Source: a virus
Virus genome (UHGV): UHGV-1357962
Length of the DNA: 41,089 nucleotides
Strand: one strand, 5' to 3'
Shown: piece by piece, positions 9,215 through 32,343 of the stretch
How the letters are laid out: every line of letters begins with the position of its first letter
Position numbering within the stretch: the first letter of the stretch is position 1
Position numbers and translations under genes: made by a program
Notes under the pieces: generated by a model
Seen by the model: only the letters and a program-made list of their open reading frames with translations
What the model was told of the DNA's origin: nothing
Database searches by the model: none

Positions 9215-10687
9215 ATGCCTACTCCGATTCGCCGCCGTTTCGCGGTCGATACGCTACTGAACGATAAAGTAGCCACTGTCGATGTGCTGAACCGCGCAGG
9301 CTTTATCACAACCAACGATTTATTCAGCGGTGAGCGTTATCGCATCCTCACCCCTGACTCCTATGCTGACGAGGTTGATGCGGTGTCGCATCCTGTTGAG
9401 TTCAAGTGGCTGCAAACCCACTTCTCGCAGGAAGGCGGCGCACCTGCTGACGTTGCAGTTATTTACTGGAACAAGACCGCCTCAAACACTCCGGCCACTG
9501 CTGGCAAACTCACCGGCGGCGTGCTTTCTTCTGAAGAACAGGAGCTGGCAAAATTCACCGGCATTAGTGATGGTGCTATGAGCCTGACCATCGACGGCTC
9601 ACCAAAGGCCATTAGTGGCGTAAACCTTTCCAGTGTCGATTCTATGGATGCGGTTGCTACCGCGCTTAACAGTAAGACCACGCCTGTGGCAACAGTTACA
9701 TGGGCGGCAGGAACTGCGCAGTTTATCGTAACCTCCGCGACAACCGGCAGCGCTTCAAGCGTCACCATCACCGGCGGTGATACCGCTCTGTCAAAGGCGA
9801 TGAAACTGGCGACATCTGCTGGCTCTGCGTCAACTCCCGGAACCGCTCAAACCACTGGTGAGTCATTCCCTGATGTCATGAATGATTTCTACGCCCGAGG
9901 CGGCAATGCTTATTTCTATGCTTACGCTGGCGTGGATGCTGGTGCTATTGCGGACCAGAAAACAATCGCGGAATGGGTTCAGTCGAGCGCAGAGAACAAG
10001 GCGCAGGCCATGTTCATGACTACCGACCCGAATGCTGTCCTTAACACTGCAACGAGTGACATCGGCTATCAGTTGCGCAATACCAGCATGGAGCGGTCGT
10101 CAGTAATCTATCACCCTACTGGCGTGGTTAATGGTGTGGATATGACAGGTCAGCGTCCTGATGCTGCGATTCTCGGGCGAATGCTCTGGACTGACCCTGG
10201 TGCGCAGCAGTGGGATTACAAAACCCTGACCACCGCCAGCGACTCAGGTCTAAGCCCAACAGAGCAGGGCAACCTTCGAGCTAAGGGTTACAATTTCGTG
10301 GAAACATTCACGAACACAACGTTTACGCACCTGTTCAAGGGTCGCACCTGTACCGACCGTGAGATTCGCATTCAGTGGGGTGCAGACTGGTTTGATAACA
10401 ATCTACAAGCAAGCCTGGCGAATTACGCATTCCGCACGCCGCTGATGGCATTCGATGAAGAAACATTCACGGATGTTGAAGCGCTGATTCGTGAGTGGTT
10501 GGAACGAGCGGTAGACCGCCGTGTTATCCTGGAAGATTACACCGTGTCACTTCCAGACCCTGACAGCATTCCTGCATCTGTGCGTAAATCCGGGCAGGCA
10601 ACATTCAACGACGTATATCAGGCAACGCTAAATTCAGCTATCGACGGCTGGGTTGTTCGCGGAACCTGGTCAATTGGGGGTATCTAA
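9215..10687 (+). CDS. Tail sheath-like protein (490 aa; DUF3383-type).
   Basis: A 490-aa protein directly upstream of a ~137-aa tube-like protein, a G/GT chaperone and the tape measure protein, which is the contractile-tail gene order. Confidence 0.55.
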   Translation: MPTPIRRRFAVDTLLNDKVATVDVLNRAGFITTNDLFSGERYRILTPDSYADEVDAVSHPVEFKWLQTHFSQEGGAPADVAVIYWNKTASNTPATAGKLTGGVLSSEEQELAKFTGISDGAMSLTIDGSPKAISGVNLSSVDSMDAVATALNSKTTPVATVTWAAGTAQFIVTSATTGSASSVTITGGDTALSKAMKLATSAGSASTPGTAQTTGESFPDVMNDFYARGGNAYFYAYAGVDAGAIADQKTIAEWVQSSAENKAQAMFMTTDPNAVLNTATSDIGYQLRNTSMERSSVIYHPTGVVNGVDMTGQRPDAAILGRMLWTDPGAQQWDYKTLTTASDSGLSPTEQGNLRAKGYNFVETFTNTTFTHLFKGRTCTDREIRIQWGADWFDNNLQASLANYAFRTPLMAFDEETFTDVEALIREWLERAVDRRVILEDYTVSLPDPDSIPASVRKSGQATFNDVYQATLNSAIDGWVVRGTWSIGGI

Positions 10688-10689
10688 TC

Positions 10690-11103
10690 GTGCCAATTTA
10701 CAATCCCGATAAAGTAACGCTCTCATGGGGCGGTGTCGCGGCGCGAGCGGTGGCGAATGGTGAAATGTTTAATTTCACATTTAACAATGACATCTGGAAT
10801 ACCTACCCTTCCATCAAAGGTGGTGGCGCTTTCGTCAAATCCCTTGATAAAACAGGTACTTGCGTGGTCTCCTTGCAGGATGTAAGCCCGACAAAGGCGG
10901 CATGGCAGGCTCTTTATGAGGCTGGCAAGCCACTGCCACTCCTTCTGCTTGACAGAAACAGCACTGGCGAGGTTGCTGGTGCGAAAGAGGCGATGCTGGC
11001 TCGTCCTCCGGCTCTGGTGAAGGCGCAGGAGTTAACCATCGTACAATTCACCTTCAAGTTTGTGGATGGTTATATCATCCATACAGGTCAGGCGCTGGAT
11101 TAA
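10690..11103 (+). CDS. Tail tube-like protein (137 aa; DUF3277-type), GTG start.
   Basis: Size, position after the sheath gene and a strong terminator right after it. Confidence 0.55.
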   Translation: MPIYNPDKVTLSWGGVAARAVANGEMFNFTFNNDIWNTYPSIKGGGAFVKSLDKTGTCVVSLQDVSPTKAAWQALYEAGKPLPLLLLDRNSTGEVAGAKEAMLARPPALVKAQELTIVQFTFKFVDGYIIHTGQALD

Positions 11104-11110
11104 ACAAATA

Positions 11111-11130
11111 GGGGCTTCGGCCCCTTTTTT
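11111..11130 (+). terminator. Rho-independent terminator (GGGGC-ttcg-GCCCC followed by T6).
   Basis: Perfect GC stem with a tetraloop and a T run. Confidence 0.8.
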
Positions 11131-11143
11131 ACGCCCCTAATGG

Positions 11144-11171
11144 TTGACACAATATAAATAGAGTGTATGCT
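11144..11171 (+). promoter_or_regulatory. Sigma70-like promoter of the moron cassette (GGTTGACAC -35, 16-nt spacer, TATGCT -10).
   Basis: Perfect TTGACA at 11144-11149. The predicted transcript 5' end falls on ATCAACCACAGAGAGG, which resembles the leaders at 12796 and 38029. Confidence 0.5.
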
Positions 11172-11201
11172 TACCACATCAACCACAGAGAGGAAATTGA
11201 A

Positions 11202-11645
11202 ATGGGTTATTCAATAACGATTGGAGAATTGAAAGTAAGAAAATATCCAGAAGATGGAATTGAATGTAGTTGCATATCCTTCTCCGCTGATGGGATCAGT
11301 CGTGATGATGCGCCAGCATTTGGGGAACCAACTGATTTTACAAACTCAAGATGGCCTTCATATTCTGCATGGTCAAACTTCCTTGATTACGCAGGGCTTT
11401 ACGATGCATTTTTCTGCAATGGAGGGTTGATTGGAGGGCACCCTGGTGTTCGACTGGTCACAAAGGAAATGCTTGAGTTAATTCAGCAATCAAAAGCAAA
11501 TATGGAATCTGCCAGCCCGCCACCGGTTGCCACAATGGATAATTATACCGAGAAAAACGGATACTACTGCCGAATTATTTGGCTTGAATACTGGTGCAAA
11601 TGGGCGCTGGAGAACTGTGAAACACCTGTAATTGCAAACTCATAA
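11202..11645 (+). CDS. Hypothetical moron protein (147 aa), AT-rich with atypical codon usage.
   Basis: GC content is markedly lower than the flanking tail genes. RBS AGAGGAAA. No domain recognised. Confidence 0.5.
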   Translation: MGYSITIGELKVRKYPEDGIECSCISFSADGISRDDAPAFGEPTDFTNSRWPSYSAWSNFLDYAGLYDAFFCNGGLIGGHPGVRLVTKEMLELIQQSKANMESASPPPVATMDNYTEKNGYYCRIIWLEYWCKWALENCETPVIANS

Positions 11646-11656
11646 GGAGAATAACA

Positions 11657-11956
11657 ATGAGCAACATCTACTGCCGCGCTTGCGGCGCACAAATCCACGA
11701 ATCAGCCACCGATTGCCCAAACTGCGGAGCGAAACAACAGGTTTACACCAAGAGCAAAGTTACCGCTGTGCTGCTTTGCTTTTTCTTCGGTTTTATTGGA
11801 ATCCACCGCTTCTATCTTGGGCGCCCGTTTTCCGGCGTGATGTACATTCTTTTTTGCTGGACTGGCATCACATTTTTCGTTGCGTTTATCGAGTTCATTA
11901 TCCTGCTGTGTACCAGTGAGCAGGAAATTAACCGTAAGTATGGGGTGAAGAAATGA
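11657..11956 (+). CDS. Zn-ribbon plus TM2-domain membrane protein (99 aa).
   Basis: An N-terminal CxxC...CxxC (YCRACGAQ...CPNCGA) is followed by a TM2-like motif (KSKVTAVLLCFFFGFIGIHRFYLG) and a second TM helix. AAGGAG RBS. Confidence 0.65.
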   Translation: MSNIYCRACGAQIHESATDCPNCGAKQQVYTKSKVTAVLLCFFFGFIGIHRFYLGRPFSGVMYILFCWTGITFFVAFIEFIILLCTSEQEINRKYGVKK

Positions 11957-12489
11957 AACTGAAAATCAGCAAAATCATGCTTGAGTCTACGCACATCTTC
12001 CGCGCAAAAGCGGACATTCGTTACTATCTTAACGGCGTGTGCTTCATGCCTGGCGGAAAGCTGGCGGCAACTGACGGTCATCGTTTATTCATTGGACAGC
12101 ACGACAACGAGCTAACCGAAAACGCAATTCTCAGCATCGAAAAGGCTCCGCACAAGCGATACGCATACGCTGTTTGCGATACCGATAGCGGGCTTGTTGA
12201 GTTCTTCAATGATTCTGACGCCCGCGTCGGCGTGGCGCTATGCCAGTTAATTGATGGTAGGTATCCTGATGTTGAGCGCATCATGCCTAATGAAACGAAT
12301 GCCGTTGACAGAATCAGATTCAATGCCGGTTATCTGGCTGATGTCGAGAAGTGTGCGAAGCTGTTCAATTCTAAGTGGCCTAACGTCACATTTGAACTGC
12401 AAGGGAATGATAAGGCAGCAGTCGCCACGGTTAAATCACCAACTGGCGAGAGCGCGAAGATTATCGTTATGCCGATGAGGATTGACTGA
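11953..12489 (+). CDS. Truncated beta-sliding-clamp (DnaN domain II/III-like) homolog, 178 aa.
   Basis: ATDGHRL (cf. E. coli DnaN ATDGHRLAV) and a C-terminal ...IIVMPMRID (cf. DnaN C-terminus ...YVVMPMRL). It has no domain I equivalent. ATGA-coupled to the upstream gene. Confidence 0.5.
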   Translation: MKLKISKIMLESTHIFRAKADIRYYLNGVCFMPGGKLAATDGHRLFIGQHDNELTENAILSIEKAPHKRYAYAVCDTDSGLVEFFNDSDARVGVALCQLIDGRYPDVERIMPNETNAVDRIRFNAGYLADVEKCAKLFNSKWPNVTFELQGNDKAAVATVKSPTGESAKIIVMPMRID

Positions 12490-12749
12490 TGATCGAGTGG
12501 ATTAAATGCAGTGATCGGTTGCCGGAATGCGCTTATGGTTACTTTCTGGTTTGCAGGGTTTACCATGCGCAAGGAAGCGCTCCGCACGTCATGCCATCTT
12601 TTTACATAAAGGACAGGGAGCAAGCAAGAGAGCAGCTTCCATATTTCTCAAGAAAAACGCAGGGAAAGTATTCTGTTCATTTCCAAGCCGCAGAGCCTGG
12701 ATTTATAATTACCCACTGGATGCCGCTACCAGAGCCACCAACAGAATAA
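12489..12749 (+). CDS. DUF551-family phage protein (86 aa).
   Basis: IKCSDRLPE...WMPLPEPP signature. ATGA overlap with the upstream gene. A terminator follows. Confidence 0.6.
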   Translation: MIEWIKCSDRLPECAYGYFLVCRVYHAQGSAPHVMPSFYIKDREQAREQLPYFSRKTQGKYSVHFQAAEPGFIITHWMPLPEPPTE

Positions 12750-12769
12750 GCCCCTCACGGGGCTTTTTT
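12749..12769 (+). terminator. Rho-independent terminator (AGCCCC-tcac-GGGGCT followed by a T run).
   Basis: Perfect 6-bp stem plus TTTTTT. Confidence 0.75.
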
Positions 12770-12785
12770 CATTCCCCTCCCTCCG

Positions 12786-12808
12786 TGTTATAATTATGTC
12801 AACCAAAC
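12786..12808 (+). promoter_or_regulatory. Extended -10 promoter (TGtTATAAT) fused to the conserved ATGTCAACC element. Candidate promoter of the tail chaperone/TMP operon.
   Basis: TG at 12786-87 and TATAAT at 12789-94, then ATGTCAACCAAAC at 12796-12808, the GGAG RBS and the ATG at 12822. Confidence 0.45.
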
Positions 12809-12821
12809 ATGGAGACCAATC

Positions 12822-13166
12822 ATGCAACTCAAAGACATCAAAGCAGGCGAACACACTTTCAGCGTAGTCATGCCAACCACCCGCGAAGGCTTCCGCATTC
12901 AGGCCAAGCTGATGAACATCGCGGCGCTGACCTACCAGGGCAAGCTGCAAGGTGATGAGCAATACGACCTGCTGAAATCCATGCTGAATGGCGCAGAAGT
13001 CGATAACCAGCCGCTTGACTTCGATAAATTCTTCGAAGGCCAGATTGACCTCGCTGATACCGTTTTCTTTGCTTACGTCAAGGAGATGTACCCGAGTTTT
13101 TTGGGGAAGGCGACCGCTATGTTTCAACGCAAGATGGCGGAGAACTCCGGGTCGGCGGAAAGCTGA
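12822..13166 (+). CDS. Tail assembly chaperone (G-like), 114 aa.
   Basis: Position immediately upstream of the tape measure gene. A slippery heptamer and an open -1 frame lie downstream (see the next two features). Confidence 0.6.
   Translation: MQLKDIKAGEHTFSVVMPTTREGFRIQAKLMNIAALTYQGKLQGDEQYDLLKSMLNGAEVDNQPLDFDKFFEGQIDLADTVFFAYVKEMYPSFLGKATAMFQRKMAENSGSAES
13097..13103 (+). other. Candidate -1 programmed ribosomal frameshift site, T TTT TTG (X XXY YYZ) in the chaperone gene.
   Basis: The heptamer is in the zero frame of the G-like gene. The -1 frame is open from 13103 to 13363 (86 codons) with no start codon of its own and ends at the TMP start (ctgATGgca). Confidence 0.5.
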
Positions 13167-18131: not shown

Positions 18132-20564
18132 TTGGAACTCAAAACATACTTCGCGCAAGATGCTGCTGGCAACATCATTTCATCAGCCATCGTTAACGTA
18201 TTCCTGCAAGGCACGACCACACTTGCCACTGGACTGACTCGCGCTGATGGCACTCCGCTTGAAAACCCATTCGCTGCTGATGGTGCTGGACGTATCCAAT
18301 TCCGCGCCCCTGATGGATATTATGATGTTCAGGTAAGTGCTGGCCCTGGAATAATCCAGACGTTAACAATCCAGTGCGTGGATTATTCTGGAGCAAAAGC
18401 GGATGCTGACCGCGCTGAGGCGGCGGCAGATCGAGCTGATGTTTCCGCTGAACAGGCGCAGAATGCCTTAAACAGCATTACAGGAATCAACTCTAATTTT
18501 GAACAAAACTCACGCGAGCAATGGCGCAGGTCACTAGCAGAAGCAGGGCTAACACTGGTAAGCGGTAGCTTTGAAGAGGGGGCAACGGCCAGCACAGCAA
18601 CCGATGCCGTTTGGCACATTGCTGGTGGGCAGTGCTATACATGGGGTGGTGCTTTCCCTAAATCCGTTCCCGCTGACTCAACTCCTACATCAACCGGTGG
18701 TGTTGGTCCTAGTGCATGGGTTAGTGTTGGCGATGCTTCATTAATATCCAACTTATCATCTTTGGTTGGCTATACTGGTGGAGATGTATATCCAATAAGA
18801 AGTGCATCCATAAGCGAAGGTCAAGAAATACCATCAGGTGTCAGATTTGTCAGGGTTGATGGAAATTTAATGATGATGAGCGAACCATTATCATCACCAT
18901 TAGTAGTGACCAGCTTTGACTCTACATCAATAAACGATACGATTGAACTATACCCAGCATCTTTCTTTAACGAAGTCAATTCTGGGTGGAAGATTGCACA
19001 AAACGATTCACAGTTGGCTCGTCTTCTGCCGTTGGCTGGCAATATAGGGATTGCGTACACTCCGGTTACAGTTGAAGGTATATTCACCATTCAGGGAGAT
19101 ATTCACCTCAAACCATTATTACCGAAAGTGACGGTAGATTCACGCCAGTTCTGGCTTCGTTCACCAAGAACATGGAATGATACAAACAATGAATATGACT
19201 ATACGCCATATGACATCCGCATCGTGGGTAATTTCCTGTTTGATTTCTACCGACAGGATGCGTCATTTGACCCTGGTGTTGGGCTGGCTATGCAGTCTGC
19301 TGGTACGCTTGAGCTTTCCGGGTGTGAATTGCAGGGGGCATGGAATAGCAACGTAACGATGGATTACGGAAGATGGGCGCTTGCCGATAATCTGTACTCA
19401 CATGATTGTGGTCGTGGGAAAATTCAAGGTCCAGACGGCAGCAACCGCACTGGCATGGCGATCATTGTCAATGACCCTACAGAGGCGCACGTCCATCATA
19501 TCCGTTGCAGAAACACTTGGGCCTCATCTTTATTCTTCTCATCACACCGGCCAAACCGTACTCTTAATCTTATGATTCACGATGTGAGCATTAATACCTC
19601 TGGCGGTAATGGTTTGCGTGTTCAATCAGACGACCTTGTGAACGGTTATGGTGATGGCAATGCTATCACAAGAGTTAACATAAACGCCGTTACAATCAAA
19701 AACTGTGAAAGCCACGGTTTTCGAGGGAATTTCCGTAATGGAGTAGTTACTGGACTATATGTAGAAAGTTCGAATGCAGGTGTCGCAATTGAAGGAGCTA
19801 GTGACGTATCCTACGATAACGTTGTTATTCGTAACTGCTCGCAGGGTTTGTTATGCCGCTTCTATCCGGTAGAAAACACAAGGATGCGTTTTTCTAACTT
19901 CTTGATATCAGGTTGCTCTGCTGAGGCTGTTTATTTTTTGGCAAACTCAGCCAATACCACGACTAATCTTGCCGACATCGAGTTTGACGGCATTACGATA
20001 CACGCACTTGCAAATGGTGCAAAAGGGTTTGTTTTCAACGGTGGTCCTGCTGCGGTGCCAACCACAGATTTAACATTAAAAAATGTTCGCATAGTAGGCG
20101 CTTACCCTAACACAGAAAATGGGCACTATATCGTCATCATTAACTGCCGCCACATAGAGGTTGATAATGTGAACTTGAGGGGGTGCAACGGGAGCGCAGA
20201 ATCTTATTTACAGGCACTAGCCACACATAGTGTTATTGTTAACAGACTGGTAGCTGTGCAACCACTCGGGACAGTTAACAGGCCAATATATACAAATGGT
20301 AGTGGTTCTGCCGCTATAGTGAACATTACGAACTGCGTGGCTCCTGACACAACCACAGGCAGTATTGGGTACAACCCTGTACCAACAAAACGTTATGAGG
20401 CTAACAACCAGTTTGGCAATAGCTCACAACCTCAACAGTATCCATTTACCAATTCCGGTGCGTTACGCGGTGGAGACGTAAACACCCTATCTACGAAGGA
20501 TGTTGCTAACATAGTTGCTACGCTTATTAACGACATTAGCCTTGGTAAGTTTATCACCAGGTAA
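18132..20564 (+). CDS. Tailspike/tail fiber (810 aa) with a conserved N-terminal anchor domain and a C-terminal right-handed beta-helix (pectate-lyase-like) domain. Candidate depolymerase. TTG start.
   Basis: N-terminus ...LKTYFAQDAAGNIISSAIVNVF.... The central/C-terminal region shows repetitive beta-helix-like rungs (NGLRVQSDD..., ITIHALANGAKGFVFNG...) and a sharp GC drop from ~18700. RBS GGTGA. Confidence 0.65.
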   Translation: MELKTYFAQDAAGNIISSAIVNVFLQGTTTLATGLTRADGTPLENPFAADGAGRIQFRAPDGYYDVQVSAGPGIIQTLTIQCVDYSGAKADADRAEAAADRADVSAEQAQNALNSITGINSNFEQNSREQWRRSLAEAGLTLVSGSFEEGATASTATDAVWHIAGGQCYTWGGAFPKSVPADSTPTSTGGVGPSAWVSVGDASLISNLSSLVGYTGGDVYPIRSASISEGQEIPSGVRFVRVDGNLMMMSEPLSSPLVVTSFDSTSINDTIELYPASFFNEVNSGWKIAQNDSQLARLLPLAGNIGIAYTPVTVEGIFTIQGDIHLKPLLPKVTVDSRQFWLRSPRTWNDTNNEYDYTPYDIRIVGNFLFDFYRQDASFDPGVGLAMQSAGTLELSGCELQGAWNSNVTMDYGRWALADNLYSHDCGRGKIQGPDGSNRTGMAIIVNDPTEAHVHHIRCRNTWASSLFFSSHRPNRTLNLMIHDVSINTSGGNGLRVQSDDLVNGYGDGNAITRVNINAVTIKNCESHGFRGNFRNGVVTGLYVESSNAGVAIEGASDVSYDNVVIRNCSQGLLCRFYPVENTRMRFSNFLISGCSAEAVYFLANSANTTTNLADIEFDGITIHALANGAKGFVFNGGPAAVPTTDLTLKNVRIVGAYPNTENGHYIVIINCRHIEVDNVNLRGCNGSAESYLQALATHSVIVNRLVAVQPLGTVNRPIYTNGSGSAAIVNITNCVAPDTTTGSIGYNPVPTKRYEANNQFGNSSQPQQYPFTNSGALRGGDVNTLSTKDVANIVATLINDISLGKFITR

Positions 20565-32126: not shown

Positions 32127-32155
32127 AATCTACAGTCCAGATATGGTTATGTCAA
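32127..32155 (-). promoter_or_regulatory. Leftward early promoter (GTGGTTGACAT -35, 17-nt spacer, TAGATT -10). Contains the conserved element.
   Basis: Perfect TTGACA at 32155..32150 and TAGATT at 32132..32127, followed by the leader and AGGAGG RBS of the gene starting at 32103. Confidence 0.5.
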
Positions 32156-32191
32156 CCACGACTTTAATCTTTTGTTTTTGCTTCTCATCTC

Positions 32192-32220
32192 TTGACTTTA
32201 TAAGAATAATATGATAAACT
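32192..32220 (+). promoter_or_regulatory. Rightward sigma70-like promoter (TTGACT-17-TAAACT).
   Basis: Hexamers at 32192-97 and 32215-20. A perfect hairpin (CCCTGT-taaggt-ACAGGG, 32225-32243) lies just downstream of the predicted start. Confidence 0.45.
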
Positions 32221-32314
32221 CACACCCTGTTAAGGTACAGGGGGAGTGGAGTGGCTAACGTATACTCCCGCCACCCTATCATCCTACAGGGAGTGAGAAT
32301 CAATCATAAGCATA

Positions 32315-32343
32315 TTGACAAACCCCATTTCCGCCTTTACATT
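32315..32343 (+). promoter_or_regulatory. Second rightward promoter (TTGACA-17-TACATT). A duplicated ATTGACA lies at 32314 and 32353.
   Basis: ATTGACAaacc and ATTGACAcaac are direct repeats 39 bp apart, and the second lies inside the leader of the gene starting at 32377. Confidence 0.4.

Follow-up and report, generated by a model that had tools for sequence, protein, structure and literature searches.

A predicted moron-like accessory unit with a conserved TM2-domain gene at the tail tube/chaperone junction of a coliphage clade

The virus genome UHGV-1357962, a stretch of 41,089 nucleotides referred to here as the window, carries four genes (orfA to orfD) between its tail tube gene and its tail assembly chaperone gene. 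Together with a predicted promoter and two intrinsic terminators, these genes are interpreted, with a confidence slightly better than even, as a conserved, host-promoter-driven accessory unit of the moron type. This unit would occupy the gap between two late transcription units and would carry two recombination slots around a fixed gene (orfB) for a Zn-ribbon/TM2-domain membrane protein. The junction appears to be a long-lived landing site in the wider phage group, which in this clade holds a fixed TM2 unit. The whole interval from the tube gene to the chaperone gene corresponds to window 11104-12821 (1718 bp), and the unit itself to 11110-12771. The features are as follows.

10690-11103, + strand: tail tube gene, backbone, upstream flank (phrog_280, 2.1e-17; 89-98% identical in relatives)
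11110-11131, + strand: intrinsic terminator 3' of the tube gene, GGGGCTTCGGCCCC followed by T6 (hairpin scan; -12.1 kcal/mol, z -2.0)
11144-11171, + strand: predicted sigma-70-type promoter, TTGACA-N16-TATGCT (10/12 consensus matches)
11202-11645, + strand: orfA, slot 1, acidic alpha/beta protein (147 aa) of a conserved but unnamed family
11657-11956, + strand: orfB, fixed core, 99-aa Zn-ribbon and TM2-domain membrane protein (PF05154)
11953-12489, + strand: orfC, slot 2, 178-aa "mini-clamp" (DnaN domain II and distal half of domain III)
12489-12749, + strand: orfD, slot 2, 86-aa DUF551 protein (PF04448)
12748-12771, + strand: intrinsic terminator closing the unit, AAGCCCCTCACGGGGCTT followed by T6 (hairpin scan; -13.9 kcal/mol, z -4.0)
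12766-12794, + strand: predicted extended -10 promoter, TTTTCA-N17-TGTTATAAT (TG present; invariant from CGTGTTATAATTATGTCAAC onward in six loci)
12822-13166, + strand: tail assembly chaperone gene, backbone, downstream flank (weak Phage_TAC_15 and phrog_1613 matches)

Organization of the unit and its predicted transcription signals

An earlier reading of the same DNA, the original prediction, had described a four-gene unit between two strong terminators, and open reading frame (ORF) calls, a hairpin/T-run scan and folding energies confirm it. The promoter of its own that was proposed at TTGACA, position 11144, is confirmed as a consensus match (10/12, N16 spacer), and the domain calls of a Zn-ribbon/TM2 protein (PF05154), a truncated beta clamp (DnaN homology) and a DUF551 protein (PF04448) are correct. 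The hairpins, at 11110-11125 and 12748-12765, are the sole strong terminator candidates on the + strand of the ~21-kb structural region. The unit promoter begins 13 nt past the first of them, and the extended -10 promoter overlaps the T-run of the second and is directed into the chaperone gene. Between these signals the four + strand genes are densely packed, with an ATGA overlap between orfB and orfC and a TGATG overlap between orfC and orfD. Upstream, the tube gene is preceded by a sheath gene of the DUF3383/E217_gp31 type at 9215-10687; downstream, the chaperone gene is followed by a 52-aa ORF and then by the tape measure gene.

In silico, the unit has both its own promoter and its own terminator, two of the traits that define a moron, and both are conserved with it. 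The promoter at 11144 is supported, at the level of sequence, by its position and by its conservation together with the unit.

In the proposed mechanism, the tube/chaperone junction would act as a gap in late transcription, where the sheath-tube unit is closed by a terminator and transcription starts anew at the chaperone gene from the extended -10 promoter. In each member of the clade this gap would hold an autonomous unit consisting of a sigma-70 promoter, a Zn-ribbon/TM2 gene and a terminator. Slot 1, from the promoter to the TM2 gene, and slot 2, from the TM2 gene to the terminator, would receive unrelated accessory genes that are swapped by recombination at gene boundaries. The window would represent one of the fullest versions, with orfA in slot 1 and the mini-clamp and DUF551 genes in slot 2. 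The four genes would be co-transcribed and the last three translationally coupled, yet they would travel as independent passengers and not as a co-inherited system. Host RNA polymerase would transcribe the unit independently of late control, probably as soon as infection begins. The TM2 protein is expected to enter the inner membrane with both termini inside (N-in, C-in) and to alter the envelope, and by analogy with HK97 gp15 its most likely effect would be to block DNA entry by secondary phages. The mini-clamp may bind the clamp-binding motifs of host replication and repair proteins, as a decoy or as an adaptor, and the orfA and DUF551 proteins, judged by their contexts elsewhere, may be early host-interaction factors.

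The base composition of the unit is less uniform than had been proposed. The description of an AT-rich cassette with deviating GC content holds for orfA (GC 0.43, GC3 0.37, the latter being the GC content of third codon positions), the only clearly AT-rich gene of the unit. It was overstated for orfB and orfC, whose GC3 values of 0.60 and 0.55 resemble those of the flanking genes (0.54-0.69); orfD deviates mildly (GC3 0.46). The GC content of the entire unit is 0.46 vs 0.50 for the window.

Variation at the same junction in related phages

Relatives were sampled independently of unit content, through the tube protein in IMG/VR and through exact matching of the chaperone protein to metagenome assemblies. 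Both samples together with BUCT618 gave 14 distinct relatives, and further loci were retrieved with the clamp-like protein. In the contig collection, 136 indexed blocks contain the identical chaperone protein. The sole close isolate is Escherichia phage BUCT618, which is 92% identical to the window; its homology breaks at 11168, inside the -10 hexamer, returns only over the TM2 gene (11656-11956) and is found again from 12747.

The junction is occupied in all 14 relatives, by 646-1653 bp. The TM2 gene is present in every one of them, at 92-99% identity (61% in L005), and in 19/19 loci examined. The other genes of the window are distributed differently: a DUF551 gene occurs in about two-thirds of the 14 relatives, in very different alleles and with two truncated copies; the clamp-like gene occurs in two; and orfA in none (0/14). 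The smallest version, L022, consists of promoter, leader, TM2 gene and terminator, so that the three other genes of the window are extra relative to it. Loci L013 and L014 are 98% identical to the window in the TM2 gene and 95% in the DUF551 gene, with a clamp gene between them that is only 64% identical. This discrepancy between the clamp gene and its flanks indicates independent, gene-by-gene exchange.

The signals around these genes are more stable. The upstream terminator-promoter block and the downstream combination of terminator and extended -10 promoter are retained in all relatives, and the -35 hexamer of the unit promoter is invariant in 18 loci. Different hairpin sequences stand at the position of the first terminator in L005, in L013 and in a PY100-like Yersinia phage, and in the second terminator of L005 changes on both sides of the stem (CCCGC/GCGGG) preserve the hairpin. 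Genes for HNH endonucleases (HNH_3, homing-endonuclease-like) are found between the tube gene and the terminator-promoter block at L005:6496-7038 and L013:2937-3446; each carries its own terminator and a promoter-like site, and in both loci the conserved terminator-promoter block remains with the TM2 gene.

Outside the clade the junction is used differently. The PY100-like Yersinia phage vB_YenM_12, whose tube protein is 44% identical, has a gene for a signal-peptide protein there (L027:5790-6344), preceded by a different terminator and an overlapping promoter-like site, TTGACT-N17-TATTAT. In Vibrio phage 13VT501A, which is more distant, the junction is free of genes, and a reverse-strand signal-peptide gene precedes the tape measure gene (L028:6396-6800). 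The signal peptides mark both proteins, which differ from each other, as targeted to the envelope.

These comparisons modify the idea of an inserted moron-type cassette. A bracketed accessory unit whose gene content differs between relatives was indeed found; a recent insertion is not supported, since the junction is filled in 14/14 relatives and always includes the TM2 gene. In the proposed comparison for presence or absence, the junction was never empty in these relatives; the TM2 gene is universally conserved, though nothing suggests that it is structural, and the remaining genes are variable.

A further element was observed at this position in 9/18 relatives, in which a conserved, GC-rich leader of ~165 nt separates the unit promoter (with the -10 variant TATAGT) from the first gene. 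This leader lies at L022:2620-2810, is also found in L001, L003, L013, L014, L019, L024, L025 and L026, and is absent from the window. It holds a 10-codon mini-ORF, MQQERSNAGA, with a Shine-Dalgarno sequence. No Rfam family was detected in the window or in the 165-nt leader, and the leader folds no better than shuffled sequences do (z 0.02).

The Zn-ribbon/TM2 membrane protein

The fixed gene of the unit, orfB, encodes a protein that matches PF05154 over residues 32-81 with 66.3 bits (cutoff 27.9; 2.8e-18), in addition to Zn_Ribbon_1. A CxxC...CxxC arrangement is followed by two hydrophobic helices with basic flanks and by a charged C-terminus, and seven of the 99 residues are cysteines. The basic flanks of the two helices make an N-in/C-in topology likely. 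The gene is under strong purifying selection, with a median ratio of nonsynonymous to synonymous substitution rates (dN/dS) of 0.062 over 105 pairs. A Pfam scan of orfB gave TM2 and zinc-ribbon families only, with no YebO match, a PDB sequence search returned zinc-ribbon noise only, and the literature searched is silent on what TM2 proteins do, be it in phages or in bacteria.

TM2 genes of this kind are not confined to phages. One that is 87% identical at the nucleotide level lies in a chromosomal island of E. coli ET915 between yhbW and ubiV (L010:578-8905). This integrative island of ~9 kb encodes an integrase, a helix-turn-helix (HTH) regulator and a YfjI-family protein, and resembles a phage satellite. 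TM2 genes were also observed in Streptococcus satellite phages. A bacterial TM2 homolog of 98 aa (P0253, 56% identical) is flanked by a divergent MerR/CueR-like regulator and a CopA-like P-type ATPase (L034:4263-8009; also L035 and L036).

A role of orfB as the phage holin was considered and is unlikely because genes of the lysis type sit elsewhere, in an apparent lysis cassette at 21-1199. This cassette comprises a GH108/PG_binding_3 endolysin gene (21-479), a holin-like ORF with two transmembrane helices (527-769) and a spanin-like arrangement, in which an ORF with an N-terminal transmembrane helix (788-1051) overlaps an ORF with a lipoprotein-like signal (969-1199).

The mini-clamp family

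The protein encoded by orfC is a shortened relative of the bacterial sliding clamp. A phmmer search against E. coli beta clamp structures (2.3e-10) aligned query residues 7-168 with DnaN 136-302 and residues 116-177 with DnaN 312-366; in summary, orfC corresponds to DnaN 136-252 (domain II) and, with its last 60 residues, to the distal half of domain III (DnaN 311-366). Its C-terminus reads VMPMRI, compared with VVMPMRL in DnaN. The scores remain below the curated clamp cutoffs (TIGR00663, 38.6 bits vs 137.65, 6.2e-10; PF02767, 21.8 vs 27), and a Pfam scan found no PF00712 or PF02768 match. The protein lacks domain I, DnaN residues ~253-310, where the dimer interface lies, and a channel-lining helix of domain II. 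The AlphaFold2 (AF2) model has a predicted local distance difference test score (pLDDT) of 86.5, and its Foldseek matches are sliding clamps only. The better superpositions (TM ~0.6) extend over ~256-263 alignment columns for a query of 178 residues, a span that fits an internal deletion. A ring of the DnaN type is impossible for this protein because domain I, the first half of domain III and one helix of domain II are lacking.

The segments that are retained include the peptide-binding pocket of the clamp, which consists of 18 listed residues (PMC11139829). In orfC, 15 of these are identical to DnaN, two are V-to-I exchanges and V344 is replaced by A; set against an overall identity of 34% between the two proteins, this enrichment has a hypergeometric p of 5.7e-6. 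A profile search of 1.84 billion representatives returned 944 proteins at E ≤ 1e-10, and 136 of the best 150 are 160-225 aa long. Across these 136 family representatives the pocket columns are the best conserved, with a mean top-residue frequency of 0.74 vs 0.39 for all columns, and pocket residues account for 11 of the 30 most conserved positions. The clamp-like gene itself is under strong purifying selection (dN/dS 0.09-0.14), which marks it, like the TM2 gene, as a real gene. No window ORF of at least 60 aa has a QL.LF-type clamp-binding motif, so any partner of orfC would be a host protein.

Clamp-like genes were found in 277 phage records and in two kinds of surroundings. In Serratia Eta and IME_EC2 they adjoin primase, ParB or helicase genes. 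In unrelated siphoviruses they lie within structural or tail clusters, as in Proteus RS10pmA (L032:2998-3495), phage rolling (L030:2998-3510) and Vibrio 1.012.O (L033:2944-3522). In RS10pmA the gene is on the opposite strand, just 5' of the tail assembly protein genes and beside an unannotated gene that may encode the major tail protein; this position is similar to that in the window.

Within existing classifications, orfC is a full-length member of phrog_3007 (1.6e-51) and is 54-60% identical to many siphovirus proteins. Members of this group occur in Jersey-like phages, Swiduovirus, Dhillonvirus, Serratia Eta and others, and are labelled "DNA polymerase III beta subunit" or "RusA-like"; unlike the phrog_3007 genes in replication modules, orfC sits in a tail-operon unit. 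A function as a RusA-like Holliday junction resolvase was rejected, as no RusA family was found in Pfam or NCBIfam at E ≤ 0.1 and only DnaN/clamp families matched. The label "RusA-like Holliday junction resolvase" nevertheless stands in PHROGs v4 and in many phage records, and is spreading through annotation pipelines. The mini-clamp family comprises at least ~136 clusters at 50% identity that are mislabelled as RusA-like or as Pol III beta, and the literature searched contains no characterized phrog_3007 member.

E. coli DnaN has 366 aa, compared with 178 aa in orfC, which is encoded by a phage and is dispensable in most relatives. A shorter form of DnaN, beta*, is induced by UV and spans domains II-III. 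On the basis of the retained pocket it is suggested, tentatively, that orfC and its family could be ringless, pocket-only clamp derivatives that bind the clamp-binding motifs of host proteins without encircling DNA. Candidate targets of such a protein would be Pol III alpha and delta, Hda, repair polymerases, MutL and RecBCD.

Alternatively, orfC could be a genuine processivity factor, four copies of which form a 12-unit ring, equivalent to the DnaN dimer, for phage replication. The predicted secondary structure, with three beta-alpha-beta-beta-beta clamp half-domain units of which the middle one lacks its helix, is compatible with this proposal, as is the location of some family members next to primase or helicase genes. 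The ORFs scanned in the window also include no DNA polymerase, which implies reliance on host Pol III, an enzyme that needs a clamp. That clamp is, however, already provided by the host, and the clamp-like gene is dispensable in most relatives. Both the dimer-interface segments and one channel helix of DnaN are absent, and several phages carry the gene in tail clusters and not in replication modules. A processivity role is consequently regarded as improbable.

The proteins encoded by orfA and orfD

The 147-aa product of orfA had been taken for an orphan, an assignment refuted by at least 191 homologs at E ≤ 1e-3. Its family shares invariant motifs: an N-terminal MGY, APAFGEPTD..N.RWPSY, GGHPG and, near the C-terminus, NC.TP..N. 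The AF2 model reaches a pLDDT of 92.8, and the nearest folds are YfbM (DUF1877) and the Neisseria DNA-mimic protein DMP12. There was no match in Pfam, PHROG, NCBIfam or PADLOC, nor in a PDB sequence search. One homolog lies between N and cIII of a Pantoea lambdoid prophage (L011:4498-4944); another, 63% identical, is a lone reverse-strand insert among the baseplate genes of a different myovirus (L015:4001-4432); further homologs occur in Ralstonia phages and jumbo Klebsiella phages.

The product of orfD matches PF04448 over profile positions 1-68/68 with 45.6 bits (cutoff 22; 1.3e-11), and a PDB sequence search found nothing for it. The L013 and L014 copies are 95% identical to orfD, and other relatives carry divergent DUF551 genes in the same slot. 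DUF551 is found in many phages, P22 included, and has been described as a portable domain of early phage regions, for example in Ea22 and YfdS (PMC10834534, PMC4776307). Compared with the lambdoid and cryptic-prophage forms (the C-terminal domain of an Ea22 variant, YfdS and the P22 nin/ea ORFs), orfD is a stand-alone DUF551 domain. Unlike early-region lambdoid DUF551 genes, it belongs to a unit in the late region and differs in allele from one close relative to another.

Phage genome and lifestyle

The window phage is a myovirus with a tail of the E217/PY100 type, comprising a DUF3383 sheath, a Dit-like protein, an E217_GP41 hub and Baseplate_J. Its genome also encodes a DnaB-like helicase, a ParB-HTH protein, a superfamily 2 (SF2) helicase, RecT/YqaJ recombination proteins, SSB, methyltransferases, an Ea22-like protein and a terminase. 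No integrase, repressor or excisionase was found among the ~40 window ORFs scanned, and the lone "integrase" label in the BUCT618 record falls among tail-fibre genes. Searches for a related prophage were negative in 5,426 complete E. coli genomes (megablast and blastn) and in 185,579 GTDB species-representative genomes (tube-protein scan). The relatives are contigs of genome length (38-43 kb).

Two other regions of the window were observed. Within the baseplate cluster, an 810-aa ORF at 18132-20564 carries a Tail_spike_N (TSP1/Gp66) domain and has a low GC of 0.46 and a GC3 of 0.40; the BUCT618 annotation has only a 354-bp gene at this place. This ORF may be another mosaic insertion that alters host range. 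At 32127-32343, between ORFs without family matches, strong divergent sigma-70-like promoters are clustered, with several TTGACA hexamers on both strands, and this cluster may be an early control region.

Alternative explanations

Several points weigh against the interpretation as a moron-type exclusion unit with a partner-binding mini-clamp. The unit promoter is identified by its fit to the consensus, and the region shows no enrichment of such matches (11 observed vs 6.2 ± 2.3 expected). Because the backbone is ~92% identical among relatives, conservation of short motifs is weak evidence. Neither sequence nor fold connects TM2 proteins with a proven exclusion protein, the MerR/CueR-CopA context of the bacterial homologs hints at a metal-related role instead of exclusion, and the universal retention of the TM2 gene at a fixed position could reflect a function in the phage's own cycle. 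For the mini-clamp, the pocket residues coincide in part with motifs whose conservation may reflect folding alone, and the pocket decays to 9-12 of 18 residues in distant family members.

The most serious competitor, although still unlikely, takes up the point on retention. It holds that the TM2 protein serves a core phage function, such as lysis timing in the manner of a holin or antiholin, membrane steps of tail assembly, or genome delivery, and that only its neighbours are accessory. Presence in 19/19 loci at a fixed position with a dN/dS of 0.06 fits this view, as do the holin-like build of the protein (small, two transmembrane helices, charged C-terminus) and the retention of the gene at 61% identity in the distant relative L005. 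Against it, the gene has a predicted host-type promoter of its own and terminators that insulate it from the late units. An endolysin gene with holin-like and spanin-like ORFs is present elsewhere (21-1199), the PY100-like and Vibrio relatives share the tail module and lack a TM2 gene at the junction, and a non-phage E. coli island as well as bacterial chromosomes contain close TM2 copies.

The remaining two proposals are both very improbable. One treats the four genes, or at least the TM2 and clamp-like proteins, as one system that functions in defence, anti-defence or host takeover, in line with the earlier emphasis on the TM2/clamp pairing. The shared promoter and terminator and the translational coupling of orfB, orfC and orfD would agree with it, and within the clade the clamp-like gene always lies directly 3' of the TM2 gene with the same ATGA overlap. 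The occurrence of the clamp-like gene in 2/14 relatives, against 14/14 for TM2, instead marks the pairing as a mosaic coincidence. The TM2 gene stands alone in L022, the clamp allele (64%) was exchanged separately from its TM2 and DUF551 flanks (95-98%), and no TM2 gene is annotated near the clamp-like gene in six other phages examined, so that the pairing as a system is not supported. Each of the passenger genes is also encountered by itself in other genomes. A known defence system was likewise rejected, since none of the four proteins has a match in PADLOC-DB at E ≤ 0.1. The other proposal sees a classical lysogenic-conversion moron, expressed from a repressed prophage to the benefit of the lysogen. 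The formal definition of a moron, with its own promoter, its own terminator and a partly different composition (PMC3594210), does describe the unit, and genes of the Ea22/Eaa type, typical of temperate phages, are found elsewhere in the genome. The absence of integrase, repressor and excisionase genes among the ORFs scanned and of prophage copies in the 5,426 E. coli and 185,579 species-representative genomes makes expression from a prophage unlikely; the placement of the BUCT618 "integrase" label among tail-fibre genes and the genome-length contigs of 38-43 kb point in the same direction. A host-type promoter would instead fire during lytic infection, probably early. The preferred reading thus remains that of an accessory unit of the moron type with a fixed TM2 gene and two exchange slots.

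Comparison with HK97 gp15 and biological significance

In phage HK97, the moron gene gp15 is located between the genes for the tail chaperone and the tape measure, and its product is an exclusion protein of the inner membrane (Juhala et al. 2000; Cumby et al. 2012; reviewed in PMC3594210). It shares several traits with the unit described here: both are small, possess a promoter and a terminator of their own, stand in a tail operon beside a chaperone gene, encode a small inner-membrane protein (predicted in the case of orfB), are horizontally spread and have homologs in bacterial chromosomes. By position and topology, gp15 is judged the nearest characterized case to orfB. The resemblance is positional and topological, with no sequence relationship, as gp15 belongs to the YebO family and orfB to TM2. 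The locations also differ, since gp15 is found between chaperone and tape measure and this unit between tube and chaperone. HK97 is temperate and gp15 is expressed from the prophage, whereas no lysogeny module or prophage copy was found here. Unlike gp15, the present unit combines a fixed core gene with two exchange slots that hold up to three extra genes, and its exclusion function is only inferred.

Taken together, the unit adds a well-resolved case to a known phenomenon, the moron-like accessory unit in a tail operon. It reveals how a hot spot is built in an abundant, unstudied coliphage clade, with conserved signals around one fixed core gene and two exchange slots; the literature searched contains no functional study on BUCT618. 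Since the clade seems not to be temperate, these data suggest that moron-like units act in lytic infection too. The orfB protein offers a concrete, testable candidate for the function of bacterial and phage TM2-domain proteins. The analysis of orfC exposes a large, mis-annotated phage family whose best-conserved feature is the partner-binding pocket of the clamp. If its members do titrate or redirect clamp-binding host proteins, they would represent a new form of phage interference with replication, repair or replication licensing and a natural source of ligand traps based on the clamp pocket. The family would then constitute a new class of host-takeover factor, a decoy or adaptor for the clamp interactome.

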